57,266 bases of DNA. It comes from an uncultured Bacilli bacterium (GTDB lineage: Bacteria > Bacillota_I > Bacilli_A > RF39 > UBA660). Position 1 is the stretch's first letter; each line of letters opens with the position of its first letter. The notes below the pieces were generated by a model. That model saw only the letters and a list, made by a program, of their open reading frames with translations. It was not told where the DNA came from and ran no database searches. Location of the stretch: the NCBI GenBank assembly GCA_947627925.1, contig CANQXW010000004.1, forward strand, positions 1 through 57,266. Reading direction: 5' to 3'. Positions 1,538-43,727 of the stretch are shown one piece after another. Both the position numbers and the translations under genes were made by a program.

Positions 1538-1546
1538 AATGTCCCT

Positions 1547-3989: not shown

Positions 3990-4008
3990 TTTTTCTCCTC
4001 CTTATCTT

Positions 4009-8398: not shown

Positions 8399-8494
8399 AC
8401 TAACCTCTATTCTAAGATAATTATATAATAGTTTTGATAATATAGGTTAAAAGAAGTTCTTATCTTGACGTTTTAACGTCAAGAAAAAAGGAAA

Positions 8495-11400: not shown

Positions 11401-11674
11401 CGCGAATATAATCATCCATTATAAAAAATAATAGTTTTTCTTCAAAAATATTTTCTATATTAGAAAGATCATTTTCGGATAAACTAGCAATTACCTCTTG
11501 CATTTGGGGAACAATTAATGAAGAGAATTCATCTAAAGAATATGAGTTTTTAAAGCGTTCATAAAAAGTTTTAATAAAAGAAAAAAAGAAAGATTCTATA
11601 TCATTTAGAGAATATGATTTAAGTTTTGTTAAATTTAAATTTTCCATATCCATCAATCTTTCTTTTAATATCAT
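8495..11674 (-). CDS. rpoD: group-1-like RNA polymerase sigma-70 factor with a long C-terminal extension
   Basis: 1059 aa. Residues ~205-481 carry primary-sigma signatures: '[12 protein letters not shown]', '[13 protein letters not shown]', '[17 protein letters not shown]', '[10 protein letters not shown]', 'IRLPVHVVE' and '[39 protein letters not shown]'. The protein then continues for 578 more residues (see findings). Confidence 0.85.
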
Positions 11675-11784: not shown

Positions 11785-12687
11785 TTAGCGATGACGAGTT
11801 AATTCATCTAATGATTTAGAATAATTATTGTTATAGTTTTTTAATCGTTCATTCCTATTTTTTGGAGTATCTATAGATGATTTTTCGGCTTCATAATATT
11901 GATGTAATTTACATAAAGCTCTATGATAATGATAACTTACGGCTTGAATCTTGACATTCAAAATTTGGGCAATTTCCAATAATTTCATTTTTTCATAGCC
12001 AGGAAGACCATAATAATGACCAATGACAAATAATTGTCTAGGAGTTAAAATCTCGTTTAAAGTAGCTTTTAAATGATCGGTGACATCTAAAGATATGACC
12101 TGATCTTCTACTGACTCATCCGGAGAAATTATAGTGGATTCAAAATCTTTACTATCACTATCATCATTAATATTATCATTTATCCGAACACAACCACCGA
12201 TAGCAGTTAAAAGAGATAAGGCCGTATCTTCTTTTATCCCCATACATGTAGCAAATTCTTCAAGACTTGGCTTTCTTTCTAATTTATTTGCTAATTCACG
12301 GTAGACATATTTGGCTTTTTGAAATTTACCATAAATTATACTATTTTTAGGAACTGAAAAATCATAACCCATCGTTTGCACAAATTCCTGTAAATTTCTT
12401 ATTACATATATAGGCATATAAGTTGAAAAACGATATCCAAGACTAGGATTATAATTATTTATAGCTTTAAGTAAACCAATAACAGCTTCTTGAAATAAAT
12501 CTTCATGAGGAATACCAAAAGAAGAAAAACGATAAATACATCTTTCCATAAGCCCTATATTATAACTAATTAAGGCTTCTTGAGCTTCATTATTACCAGC
12601 TTTAGCATTTCGAATTAAAGCTTGCTCTTGTTCTAAAGATAAATCATTTGGCATAGATTTAATTTCTTCATAACTACAACTAGCCAT
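11785..12687 (-). CDS. sigma-70 family RNA polymerase sigma factor (paralog 1)
   Basis: 300 aa. Region 2 is 'DLFQEAVIGLLKAINNYNPSLGYRFSTYMPIYVIRNL', there is a region-3-like 'PSLEEFATCMGI', and the region 4 HTH is 'LTPRQLFVIGHYYGLPGYEKMKLLEIAQILNVKIQAVSYHYHRAL'. Confidence 0.85.
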   Translation of the reverse strand: MASCSYEEIKSMPNDLSLEQEQALIRNAKAGNNEAQEALISYNIGLMERCIYRFSSFGIPHEDLFQEAVIGLLKAINNYNPSLGYRFSTYMPIYVIRNLQEFVQTMGYDFSVPKNSIIYGKFQKAKYVYRELANKLERKPSLEEFATCMGIKEDTALSLLTAIGGCVRINDNINDDSDSKDFESTIISPDESVEDQVISLDVTDHLKATLNEILTPRQLFVIGHYYGLPGYEKMKLLEIAQILNVKIQAVSYHYHRALCKLHQYYEAEKSSIDTPKNRNERLKNYNNNYSKSLDELTRHR

Positions 12688-12766: not shown

Positions 12767-13678
12767 TTAACGATTACGTGTTGATCTATTTAATGATTGA
12801 TAATAACTATCGCTAAAATTTTTTAATTGTTCTTCCCCTTTTTTGGGGTAATCTAAATAAGATGATAATCTTTTTGTTTCATAATAAAGGCGTAATTTAG
12901 TTAAAGCTTTTTTATAATATAAATCGACATTTTGATGCGTTACATGCCACAAACGCGCTATTTCTGATAAGCTCATTTTCTCATAACCTGGAAGGCCAAA
13001 AAAATGGCAAATGATAAATAATTGTTTAGGAGTTAAAATTTTATGTAAAATAGACGTTAAACGTTCAGCTAAATCTAATGCCATGACTTGATCCTCCACT
13101 GATTGTTCCGTACTTGTTAAAAAAGATTCAACATCTTTACTATCATTATCATTCTTAATTTTAGCATTTAGGCGAACGCAACCACCGATAGTAGTTAAAA
13201 GAGATAGGGCGTCATTTTCACTCATATCCATACTGGCAGCAAATTCTTCCAGACTTGGCTTTCTTTTTGAATCAGCTGATAATTCGCGATAGACATATCT
13301 AGCTTTTTGTAATCTCCTATAAACTTCACTACTTTTAGCAACCGAAAAATCATAACCCATTATTTGAACTAGGTCCTCTAAAGCTCTTTTTATATATAAA
13401 CGAACATAAGTGGAAAAACGAAAATCAAGCTCAGGATTATATTTTTCTGTCGCCTTAAGAAGACCAATAACGGCTTCTTGGTATAAATCTTCATAAGGAA
13501 TACCATAAGAAGAAGCAAAATGATAAGCATAATAATTAATAGTCCCCGCATTATAACTTATTAAAGCCTCTTGAGCTTCAGAAATACCCATCGCCGCAGC
13601 CCTTATTAAATTTTTTTCAGCTTCTAAAGATAACGTATTCTCTTGTTGTTTAATTCTCTCATAACTACAACTTGCCAT
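12767..13678 (-). CDS. sigma-70 family RNA polymerase sigma factor (paralog 2)
   Basis: 303 aa, colinear with paralog 1. It has the same 'MASCSYE' N-terminus and the motifs 'EAQEALISYN', 'DLYQEAVIGLLKA', 'MGYDFSV', 'GGCVR' and 'ILTPKQLFIICHFFGLPGYEKMSLSEIA'. Confidence 0.85.
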   Translation of the reverse strand: MASCSYERIKQQENTLSLEAEKNLIRAAAMGISEAQEALISYNAGTINYYAYHFASSYGIPYEDLYQEAVIGLLKATEKYNPELDFRFSTYVRLYIKRALEDLVQIMGYDFSVAKSSEVYRRLQKARYVYRELSADSKRKPSLEEFAASMDMSENDALSLLTTIGGCVRLNAKIKNDNDSKDVESFLTSTEQSVEDQVMALDLAERLTSILHKILTPKQLFIICHFFGLPGYEKMSLSEIARLWHVTHQNVDLYYKKALTKLRLYYETKRLSSYLDYPKKGEEQLKNFSDSYYQSLNRSTRNR

Positions 13679-14103: not shown

Positions 14104-14937
14104 GTGAGTGTAATTGCATATTTTGATGAATCTGGAGATGACGGATTAAAAAATTATTCGAGTGAAATTTTTATTTTGACTGCAACGTATATGCATACAA
14201 GTAACTGGCAAGAAAATTATGATAAAATAAAAGAATTTAGACATTCTTTAAAAAAACATTATAATATTCCTATAAAAGAAGAATTCCATGCAGCAAATTT
14301 TTTTACGGATAAAAATCCTTATAGACAATATTCACTATCACCAAATGATAAAAAATTAATAGTCAAAGTATATGCTAAAGTTATTGCAAGTTTAAATATC
14401 AAAGTAATAAATACTATTATTGATAAAGAAAATATAACGAAGTCAGAATATAATGTTTTAAGTAATTCTTTAACTTATACAATTCAGAGAATAGAAAACG
14501 ATAGTAATTGGAAATATATTATTATATCTGACAAAGGAAGAATTCAAATTATGAAAAAAACAGCAAGAGCTATTCGAAATTATAATCCTATAACTTCCAT
14601 GTTTGATGAAAATTTTTACAAAAATTCACCTATAAAAAACATGATAGAAGATATATTAGAAAAGGACTCAAAAGAATCTTATTTTATTCAAGTAAGTGAT
14701 TTTATATCATTTATTATAAATCTTTATTATAAATATTGCGTAAAAAATAAAGAATTGCCAAAAAGAATATCTAGTTGGCTTACTAAAGAAGACATAATTG
14801 AACTTATGAATTTGCTGAAAGATATATTTAATATAAATGCAAGCGCTACCAATGAATATGGTTTAGTAATTTATCCTAAAAAGTTCCAAAAAAAAGGCAC
14901 CACCTTGCCCTCATTCGAGGATGGAGTGGTTCAATAA
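14104..14937 (+). CDS. DUF3800-domain protein
   Basis: 277 aa with a GTG start and a GAGGAAGTGA Shine-Dalgarno. The N-terminal 'VIAYFDESGDDG' is the DUF3800 hallmark. It is one of the few plus-strand genes. Confidence 0.7.
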   Translation: MSVIAYFDESGDDGLKNYSSEIFILTATYMHTSNWQENYDKIKEFRHSLKKHYNIPIKEEFHAANFFTDKNPYRQYSLSPNDKKLIVKVYAKVIASLNIKVINTIIDKENITKSEYNVLSNSLTYTIQRIENDSNWKYIIISDKGRIQIMKKTARAIRNYNPITSMFDENFYKNSPIKNMIEDILEKDSKESYFIQVSDFISFIINLYYKYCVKNKELPKRISSWLTKEDIIELMNLLKDIFNINASATNEYGLVIYPKKFQKKGTTLPSFEDGVVQ

Positions 14938-20745: not shown

Positions 20746-22170
20746 TTATTTTGCTTCTGTTTCTTTAATTTTATTAATTGCATTTTCTACTACTTCTTCA
20801 TCAGGAATCATTACATATAATTTATTATTTTTATAAGAATATGTATATTCATAGCCATCAGTACCAGTTAATATTTGACTTTCTATTTGCCAATTTCTAG
20901 GCCTTTGAATTTCTTTTTTAACAAAACCTAACATAACACTTTGACTAGCATTAGTCGTAAATGATCCTTCTAAAGTTTTAAGTAAACTATTATATTTAGT
21001 AATAATAGCTTTACTTCTGGCTTTATTAATCACGGCTTCTAAAACTTTAATTTGATTTTTACCTCTACCTAAATCTCCCCCAGTGACATGATGTCTTTCT
21101 CTTACAAAAGATAAAGCTCTTTCTCCATCTAAAGTTATTTCTCCTTGTGGATATTTAAAATTATCTTCGGAAGTGAATGTTTCATCATTATAAACCGTTA
21201 CTCCTTCTAAAACATCAATGGCTTTAATAACAGATGTAAAGTTAACTTTAACATAATAATTAATTTTGGTATCCAGTAATTTTTCAATGGCATAAATACT
21301 CGAATCTACTCCATATATTCCCGCATGGGTTAATTTATCTTTCATACTATTATTATTAATATTAATATAATAATCTCTTGGTATCCAAGTAATTAAAACT
21401 TTTTCCGTAACCGGATTAACAGTTACTACAATATTAACATCACTTCTTGATGTTTGATTAATTTTACCAAATGTATCAATACCACTTATATAAACATTAA
21501 ATGGTTCTTTATTAATATTAATAGCATCTTCAATATTATTAATATCATCTTTTATTTCAATTTGATATATATTATTTAAATTATTATAATCATCCACATT
21601 ATTTTCTTTTAAAATATTAAGTTCACTATCTTCTAAAATAATTCCGGCAACATTTTCATCTAATAAATTACTAACTAAAGTATCTGTATCTTCATAATCT
21701 TTAAATTCTGGATCAATCTTTTTTTGAATACTACTTCTCGCACTTTCTAAAGATGAGGCCATACTTACTTCATTAATACCAATTACTTCGCCATCTAAAT
21801 CATCTATCTTTTTATAAGAAGCACTATTTAAAACTAAAACATTATAAGTTTTTAAATCATAATTATCTTTATTTAAACTAAATAAAAATCCCATTGTATT
21901 AAATAAATATACTTCGCCAAAAATAGTTATACCAATAATAGCCATACTACATAAATTACCTAGCATACGCCATATTCTCGTTCTATTAAAATTAAGTAAA
22001 ATTATACCTAAAACAATAAAAGCGGTAATAGCTATTGCTATTAAAGTCCAAGCAAGAGGAATCACATTTAAATAAATAATGGCTCCAAAAAGAAGAGTTA
22101 ATACTCCCAATAAAATAAGTGTTAATAATTTACTAAATTTATGTTTCTTTTTTTTCTTGATTGTACCCAT
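20746..22170 (-). CDS. LytR-CpsA-Psr (LCP) family cell-wall glycopolymer transferase
   Basis: ORF trimmed to the ATG at 22170 (GAGGAG Shine-Dalgarno 8 nt upstream). Lys-rich N-terminus plus TM helices, then 'SRSDVNIVVTVNP...LITWIPRDYY', 'KLTHAGIYG', 'YYVKVNFTSVIKAIDVLEGV' and 'GERALSFVRERH', all LCP hallmarks. Confidence 0.88.
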   Translation of the reverse strand: MGTIKKKKKHKFSKLLTLILLGVLTLLFGAIIYLNVIPLAWTLIAIAITAFIVLGIILLNFNRTRIWRMLGNLCSMAIIGITIFGEVYLFNTMGFLFSLNKDNYDLKTYNVLVLNSASYKKIDDLDGEVIGINEVSMASSLESARSSIQKKIDPEFKDYEDTDTLVSNLLDENVAGIILEDSELNILKENNVDDYNNLNNIYQIEIKDDINNIEDAININKEPFNVYISGIDTFGKINQTSRSDVNIVVTVNPVTEKVLITWIPRDYYININNNSMKDKLTHAGIYGVDSSIYAIEKLLDTKINYYVKVNFTSVIKAIDVLEGVTVYNDETFTSEDNFKYPQGEITLDGERALSFVRERHHVTGGDLGRGKNQIKVLEAVINKARSKAIITKYNSLLKTLEGSFTTNASQSVMLGFVKKEIQRPRNWQIESQILTGTDGYEYTYSYKNNKLYVMIPDEEVVENAINKIKETEAK

Positions 22171-22265
22171 AAGAAAAACTCCTCGTATCTTAATTATAAC
22201 AAACATCTAATTGTTAACAAAAAAATAAGCGTTTTTAGTTAACGCTTATTTGACTATTTATTAGT

Positions 22266-22299
22266 ATAAAAACTAGAGTGAGCTCTCTAGTTCTTTTTT
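22266..22299. terminator. bidirectional rho-independent terminator closing the T7SS-locus transcription unit
   Basis: 'aaaAACTAGAG-tgagct-CTCTAGTTctttttt' is an 8-bp stem. It is flanked by an A-run and a T-run, so a U-tract follows on either strand. Confidence 0.6.
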
Positions 22300-22398
22300 A
22301 AGTTCCTCTTATGGTGGGAATCACCGCTTTTTTAAGTTCCTCTTATGGTGGGAATCACCGCTTTTTTAAGTTCCTCTTATATAGTGGGAATCACTAGC
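22294..22398. repeat. 34-bp tandem direct repeat x3 (third copy carries a 3-nt insertion)
   Basis: The unit 'ttttttaagttcctcttatggtgggaatcaccgc' starts at 22294, 22328 and 22362. The third copy has an 'ata' insertion and a changed 3' end ('cactagc'), and only the ttttttaa lead-in recurs at 22399. Each unit contains a mini hairpin GGTG-ggaat-CACC followed by a T-run. Confidence 0.9.
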
Positions 22399-22475: not shown

Positions 22476-24347
22476 TTAAATTTGTTCTAATTTAGGCATG
22501 GCAGCTACTTGCTCACCAGTATTTAGTATTTCACCCGTAACTGTACTAGATCCTACTACTGTTTCTGTGGTGCCAATATCACTTGATATATTATTTTTAG
22601 AATCCCAATATGAGGAAACATCACAGCTGGCTGAGTATGGTCTTGGATTAGGCATCTCTAATTTAACAATCATCGGAATTTTAAACGCTGTTCCAAAGGC
22701 GACGCAAGTACCAGGTTGTAATATTTTCATTTTTTCAATAACATCAGCACTGATATTAGGAAGCATTTCTTCAATATATTTAATATCTTTAGGGTGGGTC
22801 ATTTTAAAGATTAAAAAGTTGGAACATTGGGCAATAACAGTATCGGATATTTCTACTGGTCTTTGACTAATAATATCTAAAATAACCCCATATTTACGTC
22901 CTTCTTTAGCAATCCGATCAAAAATATTATATCCTAGTAAGAAGACATCATTATCTTGTTGAATATAACGATGGGCTTCTTCTAAAAATAAATGGAATGG
23001 CACAGTTGCTCTACTAGCATTATCTTTAGCAAAATCAAAGATAATCCGTGAATATATTTTAACTAAAGCTTTAGCATAAGCATCATCTAAAGTCTCTAAA
23101 TTAATATTAATAATTTGCGATTTATGATTATCTTTACTAACCAAACTAGTTATAAACTTAGCAGGAGAAACAAATTTATCTCCAGTAAAGAATTTACCCA
23201 TTTCATTATGTAAAATATTATTAAGTCTTACTCTTAATAATTGGGCATCATCATGCATATTTTTATTTTGATTAAATCCTTCACTAATTAAAGTAAATTC
23301 TAAAGCTTTAGCTAAATCATTTAAAGTATAAACAGCATCATTAACAACATCTAAATCTTCAATATCTTCTTTAATATATTTTAAAATATAATCCGTAATT
23401 AAGACTTCTTCTCCAAAATGACCATGATTATCAATTTGGAAACATTCACTAAAACTTCTTGTATAACCAACACCTGGGATAACAGCATCTAAATTAAATT
23501 CTTTAGTATGGCAAGTATCAATAATTGTAAAGATATCATCTTTCTTTTGTCTTGCGGTATTAGGACTATATAAAATAGTGATTAAAGCTTTAGCAATAAT
23601 ATTATTTTTATATTCATTAGCGGCTTCATTATCCGTGGCAAATATTTTAGCATATTTCATCGCTCTATCAATTATGGTTAGTTGAGAGTGCTTATCGGCT
23701 TGAAGTAAAACTCCTAAATCATCAACTTTTAATAAATTTAAAGGAATGTTAATTAAAACATCAGTGTCATCTTGAGGATGTGCTGTCACAAATTTATAAT
23801 TGTAATAAGGACTAATTGCGTTAATATTTTTAAAAGCATTTTTATATTCGCCAAAAGAATCAAAGAAAATTAAATTGGCATTATAAGCCAAAGCATTTTT
23901 ATTACTTAAAATATTTTGGACTACTCTAGATACTCCACAAGATTTACCAGAACCTGAGTTACCAAAAATACACATATGATTAGCAAATAAATCATTAATA
24001 TTCGGACAAACATTAAAGTTTTTATAGGTAGCACTAGCTCCTAAAACAAAGTTTTTGTTAGATTCTCTTCCGACTAATTCATATAATTCTTCCGTATTAA
24101 TAACTCTTATTTTACTATTTAAACTAGCTTTTCTAAGTAAACCATTATTATAATGACCATTTATATATTCCCCTAGAAAACGAACTTCAATTTCTTTTTC
24201 TTTAAGTTCGACAATCTCGCCTAAAATCTTTTGATCACCATTTTCAAAAATTAAATGCAAATTAAGTAAATCGCCCGCTGCTTCTGACCCTCCTAAATTT
24301 TCAATAAACGCTACATTATCACTTATGTATAATATTTTTCCAAACAT
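22476..24347 (-). CDS. HerA/DUF87-like (FtsK-HerA superfamily) P-loop ATPase
   Basis: 623 aa. N-terminal barrel-like region, Walker A 'IFGNSGSGKSCG', Walker B/'FLEEAHRY', and 'GRKYGVILDIISQRPVEISDTVIAQCSNFLIFKM'. AAAGGGA Shine-Dalgarno, 24 nt after the preceding gene. Confidence 0.75.
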   Translation of the reverse strand: MFGKILYISDNVAFIENLGGSEAAGDLLNLHLIFENGDQKILGEIVELKEKEIEVRFLGEYINGHYNNGLLRKASLNSKIRVINTEELYELVGRESNKNFVLGASATYKNFNVCPNINDLFANHMCIFGNSGSGKSCGVSRVVQNILSNKNALAYNANLIFFDSFGEYKNAFKNINAISPYYNYKFVTAHPQDDTDVLINIPLNLLKVDDLGVLLQADKHSQLTIIDRAMKYAKIFATDNEAANEYKNNIIAKALITILYSPNTARQKKDDIFTIIDTCHTKEFNLDAVIPGVGYTRSFSECFQIDNHGHFGEEVLITDYILKYIKEDIEDLDVVNDAVYTLNDLAKALEFTLISEGFNQNKNMHDDAQLLRVRLNNILHNEMGKFFTGDKFVSPAKFITSLVSKDNHKSQIININLETLDDAYAKALVKIYSRIIFDFAKDNASRATVPFHLFLEEAHRYIQQDNDVFLLGYNIFDRIAKEGRKYGVILDIISQRPVEISDTVIAQCSNFLIFKMTHPKDIKYIEEMLPNISADVIEKMKILQPGTCVAFGTAFKIPMIVKLEMPNPRPYSASCDVSSYWDSKNNISSDIGTTETVVGSSTVTGEILNTGEQVAAMPKLEQI

Positions 24348-24371
24348 TATTATATCCCTTTCTAACTTCTT

Positions 24372-24803
24372 CTAACTTAAAAGAGTACTTATAGTGGCTT
24401 CTTCATCAGCAATAAGCCTTTGATAATAATATATATTATTTTGAGCCTGGGCTTTTTTCCTATCATTTTCCTCTTTATTATCGTCATTATCTTGTAAACT
24501 AGTAATTTGATTATATCGTATACTACTAATTTGTCTTTCATAACTTTGAATATTTTGAATATGGTCTGCTGCACTTATGATATTTTGTAATTTTTTTTGT
24601 AAAACAGCAATACTACCATTAATACTAGTTGAAGATATAACATCTTGTAATTTATTTTTAGCCAACTTATTAACTTTAGTTGATAAAATACTCGTATTTA
24701 AACTATCTTTTATACTACTTAAATTATGCTTTTCTAAATCTTTCATGGCATTAGTCGCAGTTGTTTTTAAATTGGCCGTAGCCACATTAGAATATGTACT
24801 CAT
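24372..24803 (-). CDS. small helical hypothetical protein (T7SS-locus associated)
   Basis: 143 aa, Ser/Asn/Gln-rich with predicted coiled-coil character. No WXG motif. Packed between a WXG-like gene and the HerA-like gene. Confidence 0.55.
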   Translation of the reverse strand: MSTYSNVATANLKTTATNAMKDLEKHNLSSIKDSLNTSILSTKVNKLAKNKLQDVISSTSINGSIAVLQKKLQNIISAADHIQNIQSYERQISSIRYNQITSLQDNDDNKEENDRKKAQAQNNIYYYQRLIADEEATISTLLS

Positions 24804-24817
24804 CTAAATTCTCCATT

Positions 24818-25081
24818 CTAACTATCCATCCGACGATAATTCATTGTAACATTTTCTAAATATTCTTCAATATTTTTATATTTACTTATTAAAACTTCAT
24901 AATTTTCCTGAAATGTAGAATACATATTGGCAAAATAATCTCTAGTTGGTGAATCCCAACTACCCGTACTAGTAACACTTTTAAAAGAAGAATCAACGGA
25001 ATCCATTAAAGCCATCATATCATGAAATTTTTCCACCATATTAGATTTATAATTGTCTAAAGCCTCGTAATCACAATACAT
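24818..25081 (-). CDS. WXG100-like small protein (WDS variant of the turn motif)
   Basis: 87 aa with a central 'GSWDSPTRDYF', in the size and position typical of an Esx partner protein. Confidence 0.55.
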   Translation of the reverse strand: MYCDYEALDNYKSNMVEKFHDMMALMDSVDSSFKSVTSTGSWDSPTRDYFANMYSTFQENYEVLISKYKNIEEYLENVTMNYRRMDS

Positions 25082-25090
25082 ATATATCTC

Positions 25091-25384
25091 TCATTTCAAA
25101 ACGATGCTTTTATTTCCATAAGCATCATCAAGCGTTGTTATTGCTGTAGTATAACCTGTTATATATTCTTGATATTTATTTAATGACTCTTGAAATTCTT
25201 TTACTTCTTCGAAAAATTCTTCCATTTTCGTTTCAAAAGTATCATGGTCACTACCTTCCCAAATAGAAGCAATATCACCCATTATAATTTTCACACTATC
25301 AATATCTAATTCAAAACTATCTATGGATTCAATAATTTTATTTTTATTACTATTTAATGATCCTGTATTAACTGCTACATCCAT
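25091..25384 (-). CDS. WXG100-family (EsxA-like) protein
   Basis: 97 aa with a central 'IWEGSDHDTF' WXG motif and a helix-turn-helix length typical of ESAT-6-like proteins. Confidence 0.7.
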   Translation of the reverse strand: MDVAVNTGSLNSNKNKIIESIDSFELDIDSVKIIMGDIASIWEGSDHDTFETKMEEFFEEVKEFQESLNKYQEYITGYTTAITTLDDAYGNKSIVLK

Positions 25385-25438
25385 AATTCAACGCCCTTTC
25401 ATAAATAAGACTTAAAAATTTTTTTAAATCTTATTTAT

Positions 25439-25462
25439 GAAAACCACAATATTGTGGTTTTC
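25439..25462 (-). terminator. intrinsic terminator/attenuator after the double-WXG gene
   Basis: The palindrome GAAAACCACA-atat-TGTGGTTTTC is a GC-containing stem followed by TTTTC on the minus strand. A second long AT-rich hairpin (25400..25439, arms cataaataaga/tcttatttatg) follows. Confidence 0.5.
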
Positions 25463-25471
25463 TTATTCTTA

Positions 25472-26131
25472 TTATGCACTTGCGCCAGAATCGGCAGTTT
25501 GAGCATTTTCGCCAGCTTGCTTAATATTGCTTATGCAACGATTTAAATCAGTATTAATAGTTTCCATGTTAGTATCAACTATGCTTTTTAAAGTTTCATA
25601 AGTACTTGCAGCAGCATTTCCTTCCCAACATTCTTCGGTTCCATTACCAATACGTGCTAAATGAGAATCAATATTTGATTTGAAAACTGATAAATTTTCT
25701 CTAATACTATCTAATTCTTCACCAATACTAACAATTGTAGCATAATCGTAAGTTACATAATCAGTATCAATTGTTTTTGCATCAAAATTACTTAAATCAA
25801 CTTTTGTAATTTCTCCTAATCCATCAAGTGCACTACCTAAGTTATCTGTTTCTAATTGACCAACTTGCGTATTTAATTCAGTCATAGAACTTTGAAATTC
25901 AGCCATAAAACTATTAGCAAATGCCACAAAAGCATCATGAGTAGTAACAAAATTATCAAAGTTTGCTTTAGCAGCACTACCTGTCCATACTCCAGGTTGC
26001 ATAAGAGCATCGATTTGTGCTTTGAATTTATCGCTAGCACCTTTTAAAGTATCTCCGCTTCCTCCAATATCATCTAATATTTGATTTACCCAACTTTTCA
26101 TACCTTCTGGTACATATTTAAATACAGCCAT
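25472..26131 (-). CDS. fused tandem WXG100-like protein
   Basis: 219 aa from the ATG at 26131 (GGAGGA Shine-Dalgarno). It has two WXG motifs, 'GVWTGSAAKANF' (N-half) and 'ECWEGNAAASTY' (C-half). Confidence 0.7.
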   Translation of the reverse strand: MAVFKYVPEGMKSWVNQILDDIGGSGDTLKGASDKFKAQIDALMQPGVWTGSAAKANFDNFVTTHDAFVAFANSFMAEFQSSMTELNTQVGQLETDNLGSALDGLGEITKVDLSNFDAKTIDTDYVTYDYATIVSIGEELDSIRENLSVFKSNIDSHLARIGNGTEECWEGNAAASTYETLKSIVDTNMETINTDLNRCISNIKQAGENAQTADSGASA

Positions 26132-26257
26132 TATTTTCCTCCTTCTATCATATATGACTCTATATATTTTTACTATATCATAACTAATAACGATATGCAA
26201 ATTCTATTTACTTATATTTTACATTTATCTACTATGGTTTTTGAATTATTTAATAAG

Positions 26258-26533
26258 TTATAAACTTTTAAAATATCTATTTAAAGCTTCTGTTTCCATA
26301 ATGCTACACTTATTATCAATTGCTTCTTTTAAAATATCTATTTGAGTATCTCTATCATTTATAGAATACCAACTACTAGGATAAATTATTTCTCTTATTT
26401 TTTCTTCTGGAACTTGCGAAAAATCATAATATTCTAACATCATTTTTTTATATTGTAATTGATATCTAGCCAGAATAAAATCCGTTTCATCTAAATTGGC
26501 AATTCTTTCTCTAATTTTATCTTCTATACTCAT
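26258..26533 (-). CDS. hypothetical small protein (candidate immunity/accessory)
   Basis: 91-aa ORF downstream of the giant effector. No motif recognised. Confidence 0.45.
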   Translation of the reverse strand: MSIEDKIRERIANLDETDFILARYQLQYKKMMLEYYDFSQVPEEKIREIIYPSSWYSINDRDTQIDILKEAIDNKCSIMETEALNRYFKSL

Positions 26534-26591
26534 TATATCACCTAATTTCTTAATTTTAATTTTAAAATATTTAATTTAAATTGTAAATATT

Positions 26592-27182
26592 TTAAAAGCC
26601 ATCATTTAAAATAAAATTTACTTCAATATTTAACGATTCTTCCAAAAAACTTTTTAAAGAACTAGAAATATTATTATAAAATTCTCTAATTTGTTTACTT
26701 TCCGTGACCGTACAAAGTTTATCATCATAAACAAATTCAAATACTAAAGACTTAGAATTAACTTCATTTTTTTCTATTGGTATTCCATAAAACACTGTGT
26801 CACCTTGTTCAAAGATAACATCTTTTATTGTTTTTAATATAAATTCATCATCTAAATATTTTTTATCAAACAAACAACTTTTTATGTATTGAATATCTTT
26901 TTTAGTTAAATTTTCAATATGAATATTATTTCTTAAAAATAAATATTTACTATTTAGTGTTGAATTTTCTAAATAAAAATTATGACTTATATCTTTTTTT
27001 TCAGGAATAAATAATATCTTTTTTTTAATTAATTCATCAAGACTATCAAATTTTACATATTTCATTAAAAACTTTTCTAAACTTGATTTATATTTTATTT
27101 GTAGTTGCACAAATAATTCTTCTAAATTCAGTTGTTTTATTAAATTATCATTGTACGTATTTGGCGAATAATCATAAATCAT
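26592..27182 (-). CDS. hypothetical protein (candidate immunity protein)
   Basis: 196-aa ORF starting 12 nt after the effector stop codon. No signal peptide or TM visible. Confidence 0.5.
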   Translation of the reverse strand: MIYDYSPNTYNDNLIKQLNLEELFVQLQIKYKSSLEKFLMKYVKFDSLDELIKKKILFIPEKKDISHNFYLENSTLNSKYLFLRNNIHIENLTKKDIQYIKSCLFDKKYLDDEFILKTIKDVIFEQGDTVFYGIPIEKNEVNSKSLVFEFVYDDKLCTVTESKQIREFYNNISSSLKSFLEESLNIEVNFILNDGF

Positions 27183-27193
27183 ATTTAACCTCC

Positions 27194-38600: not shown

Positions 38601-40272
38601 ATTTTATTGAATCAGTAATAATTACATAATGAGGAATACATTTTTCATTATTTCGATTTAATTCTTTTCTTTCCGCTAAAATTTTTTCTAAATTATAAAT
38701 AATTTCCCGATATTCATCATTAGATGAAGCAAAAAATCTTAAAGTGCGGTCATTAGACCAATTATGAGGAAGAATTTTTATATAATCCCAATCTTTTTCA
38801 TTATCTTTAGAAGTAAATAAAACAATTTTTAGCTCATCATAACTATAATTAGCCATTATTTGGAGAATTAACCGATCAATAAATTCTTTAGTAGTTAAAT
38901 TATCCCCAATGATTCCGGTAGCTTTATTATCATAAAAAGAATAAGTAATAGGAACATCATTTAAAATTCGTTCTTTTTGACCTAAAGCTCTTGCGACTCC
39001 GATTAAATTATCCTCTTCTAAAGTAAAATGTTCTTCAGGATATTTAATATCTACTTGCATTGGTTTATTACCAATACCCACTGGTAAGGTTAAAAAGTCT
39101 TCATCATTTACCCTTCTTTGCCACAATTTAATATTATGACCTCTAATGATATCTTGACAACCAGTAACAGTAAAATTATTTTCTAATAAACTTTTTCTTT
39201 GAATTTCTAATTCATTAATAATTTCTTCTTCTTTTTTCTTTATATATTTTTTATATAATTTTTGTCTTTTTCGTTCATATAATTTATTACTTATTTTTTG
39301 ATAAGCTCTTGTTAAAAGAGGCCATAAAAGACTACTGGCTAACATCGCCCCACACATTACTAATGATCTTGTTTGACTTTTGACATCTCCTTCACCACTA
39401 TTCATTTGATCCAAAGTAAAAATTAAAGTGACAACTGAAGTCATAGCCATAGTCATCATTGGACCAATAGTTAAAATGGCCGGAGTTTTATCATCTTCCT
39501 TTTTAGTTGGGGGAACATCTAAATCTAAAACATATTTTTCTAAAGTTTTATAAAATCTAGGTGTCCTATAAAAATAATTATCTTCATTATATATTGATTC
39601 AGTATTAAGTTCTTCTTCATCAATAACTTCATCATTAGGAGCAAAGACTGGATTAACATATCTTGCATCAAAAACTAAAAGCTTATTAGGATTATTCACT
39701 AATAAATAATCATGGTTCTCTCTTCGCATGACAATTATCTTTAACCCAAATATAAAAATTATATCACCATATTCTAATCTTTTAGTTTGAATAACTCTTT
39801 TTTGATTAACATATACACTAGTTGTAGCATCAAAAATATCTAAATAAAAATATTTATCTTTCTTTTCAATAGTGAACGCTCTTTGAGGCATACCTACCAA
39901 TTTGTAGCATATATTACAAGATTCATCAGAACCTACTAATACTTTACTTTCAATTGGCAATTCTTTATAAGTATTATCATATACAGGTGAACAATATATA
40001 TAACACATTTCATCTTTATAATTATTTTTTAATAAATAAAAATTATATTCTTTTAATAAGACATAAGGAACCATCATGCCCTTACTATCTACAACATAAG
40101 CATCACTATTACTTACTAAATTCCATCCTTCTTTAGTAGCTTCAATATTAAGCAAATTAATTTTGCGGCCATTTTCAAAATCAGTAATCCAGTAATTTCC
40201 GGATACTTCATTAGGCAATGTAAAAATATTTAATTTATTTTTTCTAATTATTGTTAATTGCATTTTAACCAC
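35653..40272 (-). CDS. essC: type VII secretion FtsK/SpoIIIE-family ATPase EssC
   Basis: 1539 aa. EssC-type FHA-like N-terminus ('LPNEVSGNYWI'), two TM helices ('ILTIGPMMTMAMTSVVTLIF', 'LVMCGAMLASSLLWPLL'), P-loops 'AGTTGSGKSEF' and 'YGSAGSGKENF', and a degenerate third ATPase domain. Confidence 0.93.
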   Translation of the reverse strand: MVKMQLTIIRKNKLNIFTLPNEVSGNYWITDFENGRKINLLNIEATKEGWNLVSNSDAYVVDSKGMMVPYVLLKEYNFYLLKNNYKDEMCYIYCSPVYDNTYKELPIESKVLVGSDESCNICYKLVGMPQRAFTIEKKDKYFYLDIFDATTSVYVNQKRVIQTKRLEYGDIIFIFGLKIIVMRRENHDYLLVNNPNKLLVFDARYVNPVFAPNDEVIDEEELNTESIYNEDNYFYRTPRFYKTLEKYVLDLDVPPTKKEDDKTPAILTIGPMMTMAMTSVVTLIFTLDQMNSGEGDVKSQTRSLVMCGAMLASSLLWPLLTRAYQKISNKLYERKRQKLYKKYIKKKEEEIINELEIQRKSLLENNFTVTGCQDIIRGHNIKLWQRRVNDEDFLTLPVGIGNKPMQVDIKYPEEHFTLEEDNLIGVARALGQKERILNDVPITYSFYDNKATGIIGDNLTTKEFIDRLILQIMANYSYDELKIVLFTSKDNEKDWDYIKILPHNWSNDRTLRFFASSNDEYREIIYNLEKILAERKELNRNNEKCIPHYVIITDSIKSIDNYDFIKNIMSSEVNYGFNIIMLVDKVMALPNECRSFINVSREDCSIYSSVINSEIQKFKIDFSPIEEISNCARELANIPIDIKTEVESSLPDKYEFLEMYQVGKIEQLNSEERWKKNNPILSLQAPVGIGKSGEPIVLDLHEKYHGPHGLIAGTTGSGKSEFIITYILSLAINYNPYEVQVILIDYKGGSLAGAFSNNMYQLPHLAGTITNLDGNELNRSLDSIESEVKRRQKEFNEARDIANESSIDIYKYQKLWREGRLKGKDPIAHLFIISDEFAELKEQQPEFMDKLISVARVGRSLGVHLILATQKPGGVVNAQIWSNTRFRVCLKVQDTADSQEIIKKPDAAYLKKTGRFYLQVGTDEVFTIGQSAWAGGQYYPNTIFKRDVDTSINAINNIGFITTTKDLEVKEEVKSLGEELPNIVKYLSELAAKNNIKIKKLWLDKIPEFIYVDNLIQKYKFEKSPYNINPIIGEYDDPSTQNQFALNVPMSDLGNVIIYGSAGSGKENFLTSLIYSCMVSYTPEEVNFYIVDFGAETLRVFNNSPYVGDIVYLSDDDKFNNLIKMINLEIDSRKEKFAGFGGTYQSYIKESQEKVPNWIIIFNNFESISDNYETLLDEIMKISRDAYKYGIYLVITTSSSNSIRSRLRQNFSLIYALQQNDENEYINILGNVHKKYPAKYKGRGIFKKGDIYEFQTAYVSKENTNDYLREFINNKLKETTYRAKKIPSLPKIVNFETINEYLDNGFDIPIGINKTTLLAQKYNFRKNPINLIGAMEIESTFEFINSFVNEIIYTNYYDLLFINTTENNFSNKNLEGRIYSKNFDELINKLGKYVDDVYKVYEENDFNEEVIKNQKRYMCIVYGTHDFINKLSDETKKIFTELIKKDNQINIISFVMVDTTDILKSYAFDDWFKTGTDSSRGIYIGSGITYQSLFKVSKYDSEDREDISNDYGYVVQTSKLYKVKLLTSFVPDNETENHV

Positions 40273-40276
40273 CTTT

Positions 40277-40531
40277 TTAATACAAAATTAATTTAGAACC
40301 ATTTTTAATAGAGCTTTCTTTAACATATATTTGATCATCTATTTTTTCCCCAGTTATTTTATCGTATAAGCTTTTACAATTATCATTAACAAAAATTCCT
40401 TCACTTTCTTCTTCTACAATTTTAATTATTAAATTTTTAATAGTTCCCACTTTTTTAACAACTGGTATATACATATCAAATTCTTTTTCAATTAAAGGGA
40501 CATAAATTATTACCAATATTTTACTTTTCAT
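40277..40531 (-). CDS. esaB: YukD/EsaB-like ubiquitin-fold T7SS protein
   Basis: 84 aa immediately upstream of essC. 'DMYIPVVKKVGTIKNLII...ESSIKNGSKLILY' fits the YukD pattern. Confidence 0.75.
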   Translation of the reverse strand: MKSKILVIIYVPLIEKEFDMYIPVVKKVGTIKNLIIKIVEEESEGIFVNDNCKSLYDKITGEKIDDQIYVKESSIKNGSKLILY

Positions 40532-40537
40532 AAAAAC

Positions 40538-40750
40538 CTACCTTATTAAAAATATTACCAATAAGACAACCAAAAAGATAAATAATAATACTCCCCCAAT
40601 TATTAATGCTAAATATTTAGAATTACTTTTCTTCTCATTTTCTAAGGGTTCGGGACTTTCAGGTTTAAGATATAGACTTAATTTTGCCCCACAATTCATA
40701 CATACTTGATCACCAGGATTAATATTAAATCCACACTTATCACATTTCAT
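40538..40750 (-). CDS. zinc-ribbon single-pass membrane protein
   Basis: 70 aa. 'CDKCGFNINPGDQVCMNCG' (CxxC...CxxC) plus a C-terminal TM 'LALIIGGVLLFIFLVVLLVIFLI'. GGGTGA Shine-Dalgarno. Confidence 0.65.
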   Translation of the reverse strand: MKCDKCGFNINPGDQVCMNCGAKLSLYLKPESPEPLENEKKSNSKYLALIIGGVLLFIFLVVLLVIFLIR

Positions 40751-40782
40751 TGTCTCACCCTCTATTAAAGAAATTATAACAT

Positions 40783-40811
40783 AAATAATTTAACTTTTAA
40801 ATAATTTTATT
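40783..40811 (-). promoter_or_regulatory. putative internal promoter for the zinc-ribbon/esaB/essC genes
   Basis: Minus strand reads TTTAAA-N17-TATAAT with TGt extended -10, ~30 nt upstream of the ATG at 40750. Confidence 0.4.
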
Positions 40812-40957
40812 GATTTAATTTAATATTTAATATTTACTCTCTTTTAATTCAAAACAAAAGATTAAAAAACTATATAAAAAATATACAAAAGGAACCATGT
40901 TAATATTATTTTATCTAACATTATTTAATTCTTTATGTATATTTATTTTAAACTATT

Positions 40958-41311
40958 TTATATAGCTGCTAATGCGGAATTTATCGATTCTAAACTTCCA
41001 TTTATTTCATCTAATGATTGAGTAGCTCCAGACTCATTAGCAAGTGTTTCACTAGCATAATTTTTAAGCTCAGTTACTATACTATTATAAACTGATTCTA
41101 ATTTACTTGTAATTTCCTTAAAAGTAGTTGATAAATTTTCACATGTTGTTGATAAATTTGAATCTTCAGATTTAACAAGTTCACTCATTTCATTAAATAC
41201 CCAACTCATACCACTAGTATAAGAAGTAATCCCAACATCAGATCCGTTTAAAAATGTTCTTAATATAAGTAATGTTTTTGATAACTCTGTTACATTAAAA
41301 GTATTGTTCAT
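40958..41311 (-). CDS. small helical protein, family A copy 2 (T7SS-locus)
   Basis: 117 aa, paralog of 41633..41974. Shared motifs: 'MNN.FN', 'SEDS.LS.TC.N' and 'SL..IN..LE'. Confidence 0.6.
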   Translation of the reverse strand: MNNTFNVTELSKTLLILRTFLNGSDVGITSYTSGMSWVFNEMSELVKSEDSNLSTTCENLSTTFKEITSKLESVYNSIVTELKNYASETLANESGATQSLDEINGSLESINSALAAI

Positions 41312-41333
41312 TTAATAACCTCCTCGTATTTCA

Positions 41334-41615
41334 TCATTTATTTAAATCTCGTTGTAATTTCAAAAATTGATTAGATATTTTAGTTATATTTTGCACTTCG
41401 TTTTCTGTTAAATTTTTTGTTAATCCTATAAGTTTTTCTAGTTTTTCGTTTAGCTCTCTTCCTATTTCGGTTCCTGATATAAAAATTTGATAATTAGAAT
41501 CATTCTTTAAACCAGATGCAAGTTCTCCAGATGAATTACCTATCTGTTCACCAACAAACTTTATATTATTTATTTCACCTTCCATATTACTTATTCCATC
41601 TTTAGTTAAAGCCAT
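41334..41615 (-). CDS. small helical protein, family B copy 2 (T7SS-locus)
   Basis: 93 aa, paralog of 41992..42381. Shared motifs: 'MALT', 'N.SNYQIFISGTEIGRELNEKLEKLIGL' versus 'NDNYNKFVNGTEFGRAQNEKIQKIIGL'. Confidence 0.6.
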   Translation of the reverse strand: MALTKDGISNMEGEINNIKFVGEQIGNSSGELASGLKNDSNYQIFISGTEIGRELNEKLEKLIGLTKNLTENEVQNITKISNQFLKLQRDLNK

Positions 41616-41632
41616 AAATATTTCCTCCTTTT

Positions 41633-41974
41633 TTATAGACTATCTAAAATGCTCTTCGCATTTTCTAAACCTTCATTAGTTTGATTAAGACTTTGTGATG
41701 TTTGTGTTTCATTTTGAATTGTTTGTTGTACATAATTAGTTAATGCTGTTTTTATAACAGTCAAATTTTCTGATAATTTTGTCGATAAATTTCTGTACGT
41801 ATTATTAATATTATTACAAGTTCCTGATAATCCTGAATCTTCACTCATTACCATTCCGGATAATGATGAAAAATCATTTGAAATTTTCGAAAGAATCCGT
41901 ACTACCTCACTTTGTGTTGTTTCGATTCTATTAATAATTTCATTTATCTGATTAGCATTAAAACTATTATTCAT
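41633..41974 (-). CDS. small helical protein, family A copy 1 (T7SS-locus)
   Basis: 113 aa; see 40958..41311. Confidence 0.6.
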   Translation of the reverse strand: MNNSFNANQINEIINRIETTQSEVVRILSKISNDFSSLSGMVMSEDSGLSGTCNNINNTYRNLSTKLSENLTVIKTALTNYVQQTIQNETQTSQSLNQTNEGLENAKSILDSL

Positions 41975-41991
41975 ATTTTTTTCCTTTCTTA

Positions 41992-42381
41992 TTAATAAAG
42001 AGTTTCCCTATAACTCGAATCTCCAGGCCTTGCTACGGATGGGCCAGTAGAATGTGCCGCAACATCTCTTTTTGCTGCCGCCGCAGCTTCAGCAGCAGCC
42101 TTACGATTTATTTCTTCTTGACGATAGAAAAAATAATTTAATTGAGTAGTTAAATTAGTTGTTTCATTTGTTAGATTTTGATCAAAAAGACCTATTATTT
42201 TTTGAATTTTTTCATTTTGGGCTCTACCAAATTCTGTTCCATTTACAAATTTATTATAATTATCATTTTGACCTAAATAATTTTTCAAATCAGCAATAAG
42301 CTGTTTTGCCTCATTTAATTCACTTGTAATTGCTTGAGCTGTTCCTCGTCCATTACTAATTGAAACACTTGTTAATGCCAT
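41992..42381 (-). CDS. small helical protein, family B copy 1, with Ala-rich C-terminal tail
   Basis: 129 aa with an AAAGGAGAAG Shine-Dalgarno. Extra C-terminal tail 'RKAAAEAAAAAKRDVAAHSTGPSVARPGDSSYRETLY', encoded by a locally GC-rich stretch. Confidence 0.6.
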   Translation of the reverse strand: MALTSVSISNGRGTAQAITSELNEAKQLIADLKNYLGQNDNYNKFVNGTEFGRAQNEKIQKIIGLFDQNLTNETTNLTTQLNYFFYRQEEINRKAAAEAAAAAKRDVAAHSTGPSVARPGDSSYRETLY

Positions 42382-42469: not shown

Positions 42470-42497
42470 ATTATATAATACCCCCCCCCGGTGTCAA
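42470..42497 (-). promoter_or_regulatory. consensus sigma-A promoter (TTGACA-N16-TATAAT) at the head of the T7SS locus
   Basis: Minus strand reads cTTGACAccGGGGGGGGGtattaTATAATaagc. The -35 is at 42492..42497 and the -10 at 42470..42475, ~90 nt upstream of the first ATG (42381). Confidence 0.6.
42481..42489. repeat. C9/G9 homopolymer inside the promoter spacer
   Basis: Nine consecutive C on the plus strand, read directly. This is the longest G/C run I saw in this AT-rich window. Confidence 0.95.
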
Positions 42498-42572: not shown

Positions 42573-43727
42573 TCATTTTATAATTCTTTTACCAGAAAGT
42601 AATGTATTTAAATTTCTTTTATAATAATCCCAAAGATTAGCTTTCAACACATCTTTATTAACGGTTATACCTACTTCGCCCACAATGTTTCCTTCATTAT
42701 CAATGATTTCAGCTGTTCCTATTTCTTTACCCTTTTTTAAAGGAGCTTCTAATTTATCTATTTTGACATTAATTGTATATTCTTTATCTTTATCATTAAC
42801 ATTTAAAAGTTCTGATGCTTCATTCATTAAAATTAATTTAACACTTTCTTCTTTTCCTTTTTCTACTCTCGCTTCATCAATAACTTTATTTTTTTCATAA
42901 ATAGTTCTTAATTTATAAGAATTAAAACCATAATTTAAAAGTTTGACCGTATCACTAGTCCTATTATCCGGCGTATCAACACCCATCACGACACTGATAA
43001 GACGCATATTGCTTTTTTTGGCCGTCGCGGTTAAGCAATAACCCGCCGTTTCCGTAAATCCGGTTTTAAGGCCATCAACATCAGGATAAAAACGGACTAA
43101 TTTATTAGTATTAACAAGCCACGTACTAGAGCCATCTGGTCTTTGTAAATAATCCTCATAAATACTTGTAAAACCTAAAACTTCTGGATAATTATTGATG
43201 AGATAAGATGCCATTAAACTCATATCTTTAGCGCTACTATAATGTCCTTCAGCATCAAGACCATGAGGATTTACAAAATGCGTATGCTTACACCCTAACT
43301 CAGTACATTTCTTATTCATCATCTCAACAAATTTTTCCGTGGTTCCCGCTACTTTTTCACTCATTGCCACCACCGCATCATTAGCAGAAGCAATGGCAAT
43401 TGATTTTAATAAATCTTTAACTTTATAAGAATCTCCCGTATTTAAATAGACTTGACTTCCACCCATACTATGAGCATTTTCGGATATAACTACTTTATCT
43501 TCCATTGTAAATGAACCATTATTAATGGCATCCATAATTAAAATCATACTCATTATTTTTGTCATACTTGCCGGAGCCTTTTCTAAATCAGCTTCTTTTT
43601 CATATAAAACTTTCCCTGTAGTGGCTTCAATTAAAATAGCACTTTCACTATATTCTGTAATATCTTCGGCCACTACTTTAATAAAAGGAATCAATAAAAA
43701 ACTAAATAACACTATTATTTTTTTCAA
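42573..43727 (-). CDS. D-alanyl-D-alanine carboxypeptidase (PBP5/S11 family)
   Basis: 384 aa with a TTG start and an AAGAGGTG Shine-Dalgarno. Signal peptide, 'PASMTKIM' (SxxK), 'SANDA' (SxN), 'KTGFT' (KTG), and a C-terminal PBP5 domain. Confidence 0.9.
   Translation of the reverse strand: MKKIIVLFSFLLIPFIKVVAEDITEYSESAILIEATTGKVLYEKEADLEKAPASMTKIMSMILIMDAINNGSFTMEDKVVISENAHSMGGSQVYLNTGDSYKVKDLLKSIAIASANDAVVAMSEKVAGTTEKFVEMMNKKCTELGCKHTHFVNPHGLDAEGHYSSAKDMSLMASYLINNYPEVLGFTSIYEDYLQRPDGSSTWLVNTNKLVRFYPDVDGLKTGFTETAGYCLTATAKKSNMRLISVVMGVDTPDNRTSDTVKLLNYGFNSYKLRTIYEKNKVIDEARVEKGKEESVKLILMNEASELLNVNDKDKEYTINVKIDKLEAPLKKGKEIGTAEIIDNEGNIVGEVGITVNKDVLKANLWDYYKRNLNTLLSGKRIIK

Follow-up and report, generated by a model that had tools for sequence, protein, structure and literature searches.

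A stretch of 57,266 nucleotides (nt) from an uncultured Bacilli bacterium (contig CANQXW010000004.1 of assembly GCA_947627925.1), here called the window, carries a gene for a HerA-like ATPase directly behind the substrate genes of a type VII secretion system (T7SS). The window belongs to a Firmicute chromosome with 28% GC and sporulation genes, and nearly all of its genes lie on the minus strand. The herA-like gene, the main regions of its product of 623 amino acids (aa), and the sequences at both of its ends are as follows.

22476..24347, minus strand: herA-like gene, an intact open reading frame (ORF) of 623 aa, supported by ORF, family and alignment evidence.
Residues ~1-90: putative N-terminal beta-barrel region of HerA.
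Within the same ORF: P-loop ATPase core, interrupted by a helical insertion.
23940..23963, minus strand: Walker A motif of the ATPase (GNSGSGKS, residues 129-136), which does not vary within the family.
22965..22997, minus strand: Walker B and catalytic glutamate region FHLFLEEAHRY (residues 451-461), invariant.
22800..22871, minus strand: ISQRPVEISDTVIAQCSNFLIFKM (residues 493-516), which includes the invariant Q495-R496.
22476-22590 (residues ~586-623): variable, low-complexity C-terminal tail.
24348..24371, minus strand: spacer of 24 nt from the gene of a 143-aa protein to herA, with no promoter and no terminator.
24362-24355, minus strand: Shine-Dalgarno sequence GAAAGGGA, 7 nt 5' of the herA ATG.
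22294..22397, minus strand: three tandem 34-nt repeats, two of them exact (GCGGTGATTCCCACCATAAGAGGAACTTAAAAAA) and the third degenerate, past the herA stop and ahead of the terminator-like hairpins.
22292-22271 and 22251-22223, minus strand: two terminator-like hairpins 3' of herA.
20746..22206, minus strand: LCP-family glycopolymer transferase, downstream of herA in the window and in the related loci L006 and L049.

The encoded protein is a HerA-clade ATPase of the FtsK-HerA type with intact motifs. It matches the Pfam family DUF87, 'Helicase HerA central domain' (PF01935), with 65 bits against a cutoff of 23.2, and several HerA models of PADLOC, the best of which (PDLC04102, E=5.6e-103) was the strongest match in any library. 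Sequences of solved structures matched as well, both of anti-phage HerAs (9c1m, 8xau, 8ziq; E=3e-50 to 3e-40) and of the Sulfolobus HerA (4d2i, E=3.5e-34). Across 18 aligned homologues G129-S136, E456-E457, E482-G487 and Q495-R496 are invariant, and the Walker A, Walker B/catalytic glutamate and EGRKYG / QR(P) motifs are all intact in the window protein. From what is known of the HerA family, Q495-R496 is a putative arginine finger or sensor. A preliminary description of this DNA, made from the letters alone, had read a HerA-type layout from GNSGSGKS, LEEAHRY and ISQRPVEISDTVIAQCSNFLIFKM, and this assignment is borne out. An AlphaFold2 model built from the 18-sequence alignment was poor overall (predicted local distance difference test, pLDDT, 63, and <50 in the second half of the ATPase core), and its top Foldseek matches, all of them HerA, reached template modelling scores of only 0.25-0.32. 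The same model places beta strands over residues 2-82 (pLDDT ~80), compatible with an N-terminal barrel.

On its scores, the protein is assigned to a distinct, lineage-specific HerA subfamily, because it falls far under every NCBIfam HerA equivalog cutoff: 167 and 142 bits against 850 and 800 for the anti-phage HerAs, 79 against 970 for helicase_HerA, and 121 against 800 for HerA_Thermprot. Relatives are encoded by at least 363 species among the GTDB representative genomes. In the protein database, more than 120 clusters (formed at 90% identity) are 67-95% identical to the window HerA. All of them come from metagenome-assembled genomes (MAGs) of uncultured gut Bacilli, which go under the labels Bacilli bacterium, 'Tenericutes', 'Mycoplasma sp. 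CAG:472', Candidatus Onthocola and Candidatus Ventrenecus, and their sole annotation is 'DUF87 domain-containing protein'. In a library with clusters formed at 50% identity, few full-length clusters remained (36-49% identity); for the proteins beyond those, the alignment starts at about residue 95 and the N-terminus differs. The nearest annotated relatives, with 30-31% identity over residues 56-581, are SIR2-HerA proteins on plasmids of Lactobacillus, Listeria and Enterococcus, where the herA gene overlaps a SIR2 gene in classical SIR2-HerA defence pairs. The N-terminal 55-95 residues of the window HerA are not shared with these defence HerAs. Some homologues also match Pfam AAA_10 (PF12846), and a search of a phage collection with HerA gave only weak terminase-like or partial matches.

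The C-terminal tails of the homologues are hypervariable and of low complexity, range from 15 to 165 aa, and end in recurrent short motifs (…LEQI, …[IL][DE]TL, RFI[ND]P). We considered whether the length or sequence of the tail follows adjacency to a T7SS and rejected this, as tails are hypervariable with and without a T7SS nearby.

Upstream of herA, the following features lead from the left border of the T7SS region to the last gene before the 24-nt spacer.

42573..43727, minus strand: D-Ala-D-Ala carboxypeptidase gene (dacA-like), left border of the T7SS insertion/deletion.
42470..42497, minus strand: perfect sigma-A-type promoter TTGACA-16-TATAAT heading the T7SS block, with G9 in its spacer.
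42481-42489: G9 tract in the spacer of this head promoter.
42381..24372, minus strand: type VIIb (T7SSb) block of 18.2 kb and 16 genes, between dacA and herA.
40958..42381, minus strand: head of the block, with four small helical proteins (117, 93, 113 and 129 aa) that form two paralogous pairs.
40277..40750, minus strand: 84-aa protein and 70-aa zinc-ribbon/transmembrane protein (clusters c7 and c18), conserved with EssC across loci.
35653..40272, minus strand: EssC, 1539 aa, the T7SSb translocase with FHA and FtsK/SpoIIIE ATPase domains (TIGR03928, 1018.5 bits against a cutoff of 778.4).
26258..35466, minus strand: mid-block genes for a 199-aa protein, a DUF4176 protein, and proteins of 2441, 196 and 91 aa.
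34542-34847, minus strand: the DUF4176 protein, 101 aa.
27194-34519, minus strand: the giant protein of 2441 aa, without a domain match.
24818..26200, minus strand: three WXG100-like genes.
25472-26200, minus strand: WXG100 protein of 242 aa (PF06013, 35.7 against 27.3; TIGR03930, 45.4 against 44.85).
25091-25384, minus strand: WXG100-like protein of 97 aa, a sub-threshold WXG100 match.
24818-25081, minus strand: WXG100-like protein of 87 aa, a sub-threshold WXG100 match.
24372..24803, minus strand: helical protein of 143 aa (cluster c10), last gene of the substrate module.

The block is a real T7SSb locus, because the EssC equivalog and the 242-aa WXG100 protein pass their cutoffs. What it has in common with the Ess/Yuk systems of Firmicutes, besides EssC, is a set of WXG100-like proteins, a DUF4176 protein and a putative substrate of giant size. 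None of its 16 genes, however, has a Pfam or NCBIfam match to EssA, EssB/YukC, EsaA/YueB or EsaB/YukD, and instead it has conserved zinc-ribbon/transmembrane proteins of 70-80 aa and the 84-aa protein. The latter always adjoins EssC and has the position and size of EsaB/YukD, without a family match. A PDB profile search with it was empty, and its single-sequence model (pLDDT 40) was unusable. The gene set is thus very reduced, with a trio of EssC, the 84-aa and the 70-aa zinc-ribbon/transmembrane proteins that is conserved in ~20 related loci.

The 2441-aa protein is likely a large T7SS substrate or toxin. Giant domainless proteins without Pfam or NCBIfam match recur in or beside the T7SS clusters, usually next to DUF4176 genes (1667 aa in L007, 1283 aa in L086/L047, 2427 aa in L171 and ~3230 aa in L168/L173); they are presumed to be T7SS substrates or toxins, polymorphic and of very large size. 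The position after c10, which herA holds in the window, is filled by the giant in L168 and L173. The c10 protein itself was considered as a partner of HerA and rejected: where separated from herA (L027, L033) it stays with the two small WXG-like genes, and it therefore belongs to the substrate module.

The G9 tract of the head promoter is the only run of at least eight G or C in the 57-kb window. Throughout 2.79 Mb of fetched loci there are four such runs, all inside TTGACA…TATAAT spacers. One of them (L046, 7442-7451) stands before T7SS substrate genes directly after herA, and three precede a large surface-protein family (c11), at L037/L038 14019-14028 and L083 17212-17220. This pattern suggests slipped-strand phase variation of the T7SS and of surface proteins through poly-G promoters.

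At the junction, the stop codon of the 143-aa gene (TAG, 24374-24372) is followed by herA at a distance of exactly 24 nt. The close spacing, the Shine-Dalgarno sequence and the lack of a terminator had all been proposed in the preliminary description, and each was found as proposed. A hairpin scan of the minus strand detected no convincing terminator from 26200 to 24347; there are only a weak 7-pair hairpin within the 87-aa gene and, at 25439-25462, a palindromic one that has no proper T-run on this strand. With the same strand, the 24-nt gap and no terminator between them, herA would be operonically linked to the EssC and WXG genes. Past the herA stop, ~180 nt including the tandem repeats lead to the terminator-like hairpins. 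The first strong terminator had been placed at 22266..22299, and hairpins do lie there, with coordinates that agree only approximately. The 34-nt repeat was found at no other place in the window and in none of the fetched loci; on the plus strand, each copy can be read as a small hairpin with a T-run behind it. An Rfam scan of the window from 20 to 43 kb gave no RNA family.

Close relatives of the window are L006 and L049, in which the flanking proteins are 93-97% and HerA 92-95% identical to those of the window. All three share a common gene order from SpoVE, XFP, HAD and DacA to LCP and beyond. The gap between dacA and herA, in contrast, is a variable site. In L006 it is empty, with herA following dacA directly after 214 nt and no T7SS block; in L049 it holds a single gene with Schlafen/AlbA_2, HATPase_c_4 and helix-turn-helix domains (8239-9884); and in the window it holds the 18-kb T7SS. 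At the same site, L049 also has an 88-aa ORF which duplicates the 3' end of dacA. Since L007 (HerA 88% identical) has the same T7SS architecture as the window, loss of the T7SS in the lineage of L006 and L049 is the simpler history.

Presence and absence of the T7SS at a retained herA site was seen in further gene frames. One consists of a sortase gene, herA and a Tad-like cluster, without T7SS in L003/L004/L024 and with it in L086/L047. Another, herA with a rhomboid gene, lacks the T7SS in L021 and has it in L001. The frame MetG-herA-TatD is T7SS-free in L037 and L041-43, and includes the T7SS in L033 and L034/35. In a sister clade, the order IF2-RbfA-HD-ValS-x-x-herA of L176 compares with [T7SS]-HD-ValS-herA in L153, L156, L174 and L175.

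Both L006 and L049 have a promoter-like sequence (TTGGCA-17-TACAAT) ~45 nt 5' of the herA ATG, of which the window has no homologous counterpart. Because its own promoter is absent and the 143-aa gene ends only 24 nt before it, transcription of herA in the window most likely starts at promoters that lie within the T7SS substrate genes or further upstream. Co-transcription with these genes, as first proposed, is thereby the most likely arrangement, to judge from the lost promoter and the spacing. Whatever the function of HerA, it is possible, at less than even odds, that herA is transcribed mainly from an internal promoter in the 143-aa and 87-aa genes and not as the last gene of a long T7SS transcript. 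A core gene under constraint is unlikely to rely on a head promoter 18 kb away, whose G9 spacer tract may moreover make it phase-variable, and promoter-like hexamers do lie within the upstream genes, for example at 24537-24510 and 24870-24843. Yet promoter-like matches in this AT-rich region are not enriched over shuffled sequence (59 against 55±7), and the tight spacing, the missing terminator and the loss of the ancestral promoter favor at least partial read-through. As a core gene herA probably also uses internal promoters, given that the head promoter may be phase-variable.

The herA gene is under unusually strong constraint. Over the same genome pairs, its mean identity is 75%, against 60% for EssC and 34-49% for the proteins of the substrate module. 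HerA (residues 1-580) is also more conserved than GatA, GatB, GatC, MetG, Mfd, RarA, XerD, AsnS/AspS, TatD and KsgA. The ratio of non-synonymous to synonymous substitution rates (dN/dS) of herA is 0.05 between the window and the T7SS-less L006 and L049, and 0.09-0.11 between the window and L007, L008 and L001. Conservation is equally strong in the HerA of the sister clade. Judged by these comparisons, the conservation is the signature of a core gene, and neither that of a defence gene nor that of an accessory secretion gene. The subfamily is apparently vertically inherited, single-copy and under very strong purifying selection in low-GC gut Bacilli.

The surroundings of herA were compared after ORFs had been called and clustered in 85 herA loci, of which 84 were counted, as L001 and L009 are the same contig. 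The related genomes are MAG contigs, and gene calls in the loci follow an ORF heuristic. T7SS genes lie inside the fetched flanks in 22 of the 84 loci, and in 16 of these 22 the nearest one is <160 nt from herA. Of the 34 loci with at least 8 kb on both flanks, 10 have EssC no more than 10 kb from herA. In one arrangement, zinc-ribbon, 84-aa, EssC, WXG-like and c10 genes precede herA (window, L001, L007, L010, L014, L017, and also L025, L034/35, L047, L087, L167). In another, herA comes before the zinc-ribbon, 84-aa, EssC and substrate genes (L028-31, L033, L046). EssC can also be followed by herA after zero to two genes (L026, L027, L032), the two can be convergent (L005) or divergent (L090), and in L086 the substrates are upstream of herA and EssC is downstream. 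There are at least five types of junction (c10 to herA, herA to c18, EssC to herA, c27 to herA, and convergent and divergent).

The majority of herA loci, in contrast, have no T7SS gene within 10 kb and are surrounded by housekeeping genes. In a clade with 60-66% HerA identity, the order is GatCAB, a variable gene, HerA, ThiF-like, (GpsA, RarA) and XerD. Another clade shows HolB-PSP1-Pth-Mfd-SpoVT-MetG-HerA-TatD-KsgA-YabG-Veg-SpoVG, and both orders occur without EssC within 10 kb. LeuS, UvrA or RplK are neighbours in other herA loci. The sister clade, with 36-39% HerA identity, retains the proximity to the T7SS; the housekeeping genes HD and ValS lie between T7SS and herA there, and hence the two do not form an operon.

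Viewed from EssC, the distribution is narrower. Orthologues with at least 56% identity form only ~67 clusters, below which identity falls sharply to 50% or less. Six EssC loci were picked among contigs not matched to herA, a choice biased against association: one has an adjacent herA (L167), three have no herA within 10 kb (L166, L171, L172), and in two (L168, L173) the gene of ~3230 aa runs off the end of the locus at the expected herA position. At least 16 other EssC orthologues are apparently on contigs that also match herA. An EssC-centred metagenome scan reached mostly distant EssC proteins (38-47% identity), with HerA-like genes in 3 of 77.

In two divergent lineages (L156 2307-6427, L172 15587-20585), the direct neighbour of the T7SS cluster is the nusA-(ylxR)-infB-rbfA(-truB) operon, and in the window the nusA-infB-rbfA operon is at 118-5398, ~17 kb from herA. 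Judging from this recurrence, an old chromosomal neighbourhood, shuffled locally, appears to be common to the T7SS, herA and several housekeeping operons near the origin.

We propose, with a probability of roughly 55%, that the window gene encodes a stand-alone HerA translocase of a housekeeping type, which has here been drawn into the 3' end of a T7SS substrate operon. By homology, HerA would assemble into a hexamer and, at the expense of ATP, thread a polymer through its central pore. The polymer is most probably DNA, by analogy with the archaeal and anti-phage HerAs. The primary role of HerA would be independent of the T7SS, and the T7SS cluster would be an accessory block that comes and goes beside herA. 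The 18.2-kb block replaces the promoter region that herA has in its T7SS-less relatives, and as a result herA sits 24 nt behind the last substrate gene and is most likely transcribed by read-through. The frequent proximity of the two would reflect old, locally reshuffled synteny. Thus, herA is probably not a dedicated T7SS component, because it persists at the same sites without the T7SS, because it is far more widespread and constrained than the T7SS, and because T7SS loci exist without herA nearby. EssC and herA were not consistently kept or lost together across the loci compared. The earlier idea of HerA as a T7SS-linked ATPase therefore survives in part: adjacency does recur, in the 22 of 84 and 10 of 34 loci and in the sister clade, but not as a specific part of the T7SS. 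Likewise, a lack of T7SS association, which would have spoken against the link, holds for the majority of homologues, yet the association is present in the remainder.

Several observations weigh against this proposal. In 10 of the 34 loci with full flanks, T7SS genes lie 10 kb or less from herA, far above the 1-2% expected for two random loci in a genome of an assumed size of 1-2 Mb. Where T7SS genes occur, they mostly adjoin herA directly (in 16 of 22 loci the gap is <160 nt). The two stay together through at least five junction types, and they are still close to each other in a sister clade with 36-39% identity. The T7SS could also sit elsewhere in those genomes whose herA site lacks it, and co-transcription in the window is deduced from sequence. 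Furthermore, a NurA-type partner was not found in the window or in ~90 loci, and we know of no stand-alone HerA in bacteria with a demonstrated housekeeping function.

A tentative case, clearly behind our proposal, can be made for HerA as a facultative or accessory cytoplasmic ATPase of a minimal T7SSb, with a separate essential job independent of the T7SS. Like EccA, it might act on substrates by preparing or unfolding them or by passing them to EssC, or it might be a VirB4-like second motor beside a VirD4-like EssC. The operonic position in the window, with its 24-nt gap and its own promoter lost, would fit such a role, as would the tight, mostly co-directional adjacency that recurs with at least five junction types in at least eight flanking contexts and is kept in the sister clade. 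A block without detectable EssA, EssB or EsaA makes unrecognised components plausible, and because a core herA would be present in every T7SS-bearing genome, loci in which it is not adjacent do not contradict a need for it. On the other hand, loci that lack the T7SS block retain herA under equally strong constraint. In most herA loci no T7SS gene lies closer than 10 kb, some EssC loci do not have herA as a neighbour, and in the sister clade HD and ValS interrupt any operon. Moreover, the closest characterised relatives act on DNA and not on secretion substrates, and a literature search found no described T7SS with a HerA component, nor a paper linking HerA or DUF87 to T7SS, WXG100 or EssC, nor anything relevant on stand-alone HerA; that HerA is absent from described systems had been noted before. 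EccA is a second soluble ring ATPase in mycobacterial T7SSa loci, besides the FtsK-like EccC/EssC. It has an unrelated fold, a CbbX-like AAA+ domain with tetratricopeptide repeats as opposed to the FtsK-HerA type here, and is confined to ESX loci, whereas herA of the window type persists without a T7SS. The FtsK-like coupling ATPase and second FtsK-HerA ATPase of type IV secretion, VirD4 and VirB4, are a conceptual parallel only; the window locus has no other type IV secretion genes. More doubtful still is that the minimal T7SSb uses the core HerA as a second motor or substrate-processing ATPase, or that HerA couples the T7SS to DNA handling, for example in ESX-like DNA transfer. If true, the first would be a two-ATPase type VII system, comparable to VirD4 with VirB4 or to EccC with EccA, and in either case a housekeeping HerA would moonlight in secretion.

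Bacterial HerA is currently understood as a partner of NurA or as an anti-phage ATPase (SIR2-HerA, DUF4297-HerA). That the window HerA is such a defence ATPase, whose effector is encoded elsewhere, is unrecognisable, or was lost or swapped, appears unlikely. The similarity is real: the SIR2-HerA (Nezha-type) and DUF4297-HerA systems have the same HerA-clade ATPase core and are the best sequence and fold matches (9c1m, 8xau, 8ziq, 8wiv, 8j4u), of all library matches that to a PADLOC HerA model is the strongest, the top solved structures are anti-phage HerAs, and the best annotated relatives are the plasmid SIR2-HerA pairs, which are 30-31% identical from residue 56 to 581. Variable flanks, at times with defence-like genes, also fit: L049 carries a Schlafen/AlbA_2 gene beside herA, and L012 one for an AAA_15/21 ATPase. 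In those systems, however, the effector gene is adjacent and usually overlaps. Scans with Pfam, NCBIfam and PADLOC-type models found no NurA, SIR2 or DUF4297 domain among the scanned ORFs of the 57-kb window, as had been noted before for the adjacent genes, no PADLOC match among the neighbours of the window herA, and no NurA, SIR2, DUF4297 or other effector adjoining herA in ~90 related loci. The score of 167 against the NCBIfam anti-phage HerA cutoff of 850 points the same way, and the N-terminal 55-95 residues, which dock the effector in defence HerAs, are not shared. Defence pairs are patchy and mobile, whereas the window HerA is chromosomal, syntenic and lineage-wide: it is in every sampled relative at syntenic housekeeping sites, is not fast-evolving, and with a dN/dS of ~0.05 is more conserved than aminoacyl-tRNA synthetases. 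A defence context, which would have counted against a secretion link, is thus seen in distant homologues of ~30% identity, while close orthologues lie in housekeeping synteny. With the end-resection helicase HerA-NurA of archaea and Deinococcus, the window HerA may share the layout of a HAS-barrel and a RecA-like hexameric ATPase, and it has a housekeeping type of evolution, but the window subfamily has no NurA or Mre11/Rad50 gene adjoining it in any locus, and is far below the cutoffs of 800-970.

Some further features of the region were recorded. A Tad-like pilus or secretion cluster abuts the T7SS/herA region in some relatives (L086 14693-23922, L003 11856-21076). It comprises two paralogous signal-peptide proteins of 215-220 aa, a 1081-aa protein, DUF5411, an RcpC-like protein, a T2SSE ATPase and two membrane proteins, and a 517-aa sortase-domain protein is encoded upstream of herA in these loci. 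In the window, a 1059-aa protein (8495-11674) has sigma-70 regions 1.2-4 only at about residues 207-471 and a long unexplained C-terminal extension, and two sigma-factor paralogues of ~300 aa follow (11785-12687, 12767-13678). A DUF3800 gene (14104-14937, plus strand) is the lone plus-strand gene within a long minus-strand run. It is missing from the syntenic region of L049, and may be a small insertion.

For the biology of these gut Bacilli, a HerA without partner, conserved above aminoacyl-tRNA synthetases in hundreds of species, points toward an important cellular role for a bacterial HerA motor. A defence-type and a core-gene lineage of this ATPase would share recent ancestry. The near-isogenic loci with and without the T7SS indicate that the ATPase is independent of the secretion system, and temper the idea of a new T7SS ATPase where that idea is drawn from neighbourhood alone. 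The persistent neighbourhood, the reduced T7SSb gene set and the poly-G promoter are testable leads.

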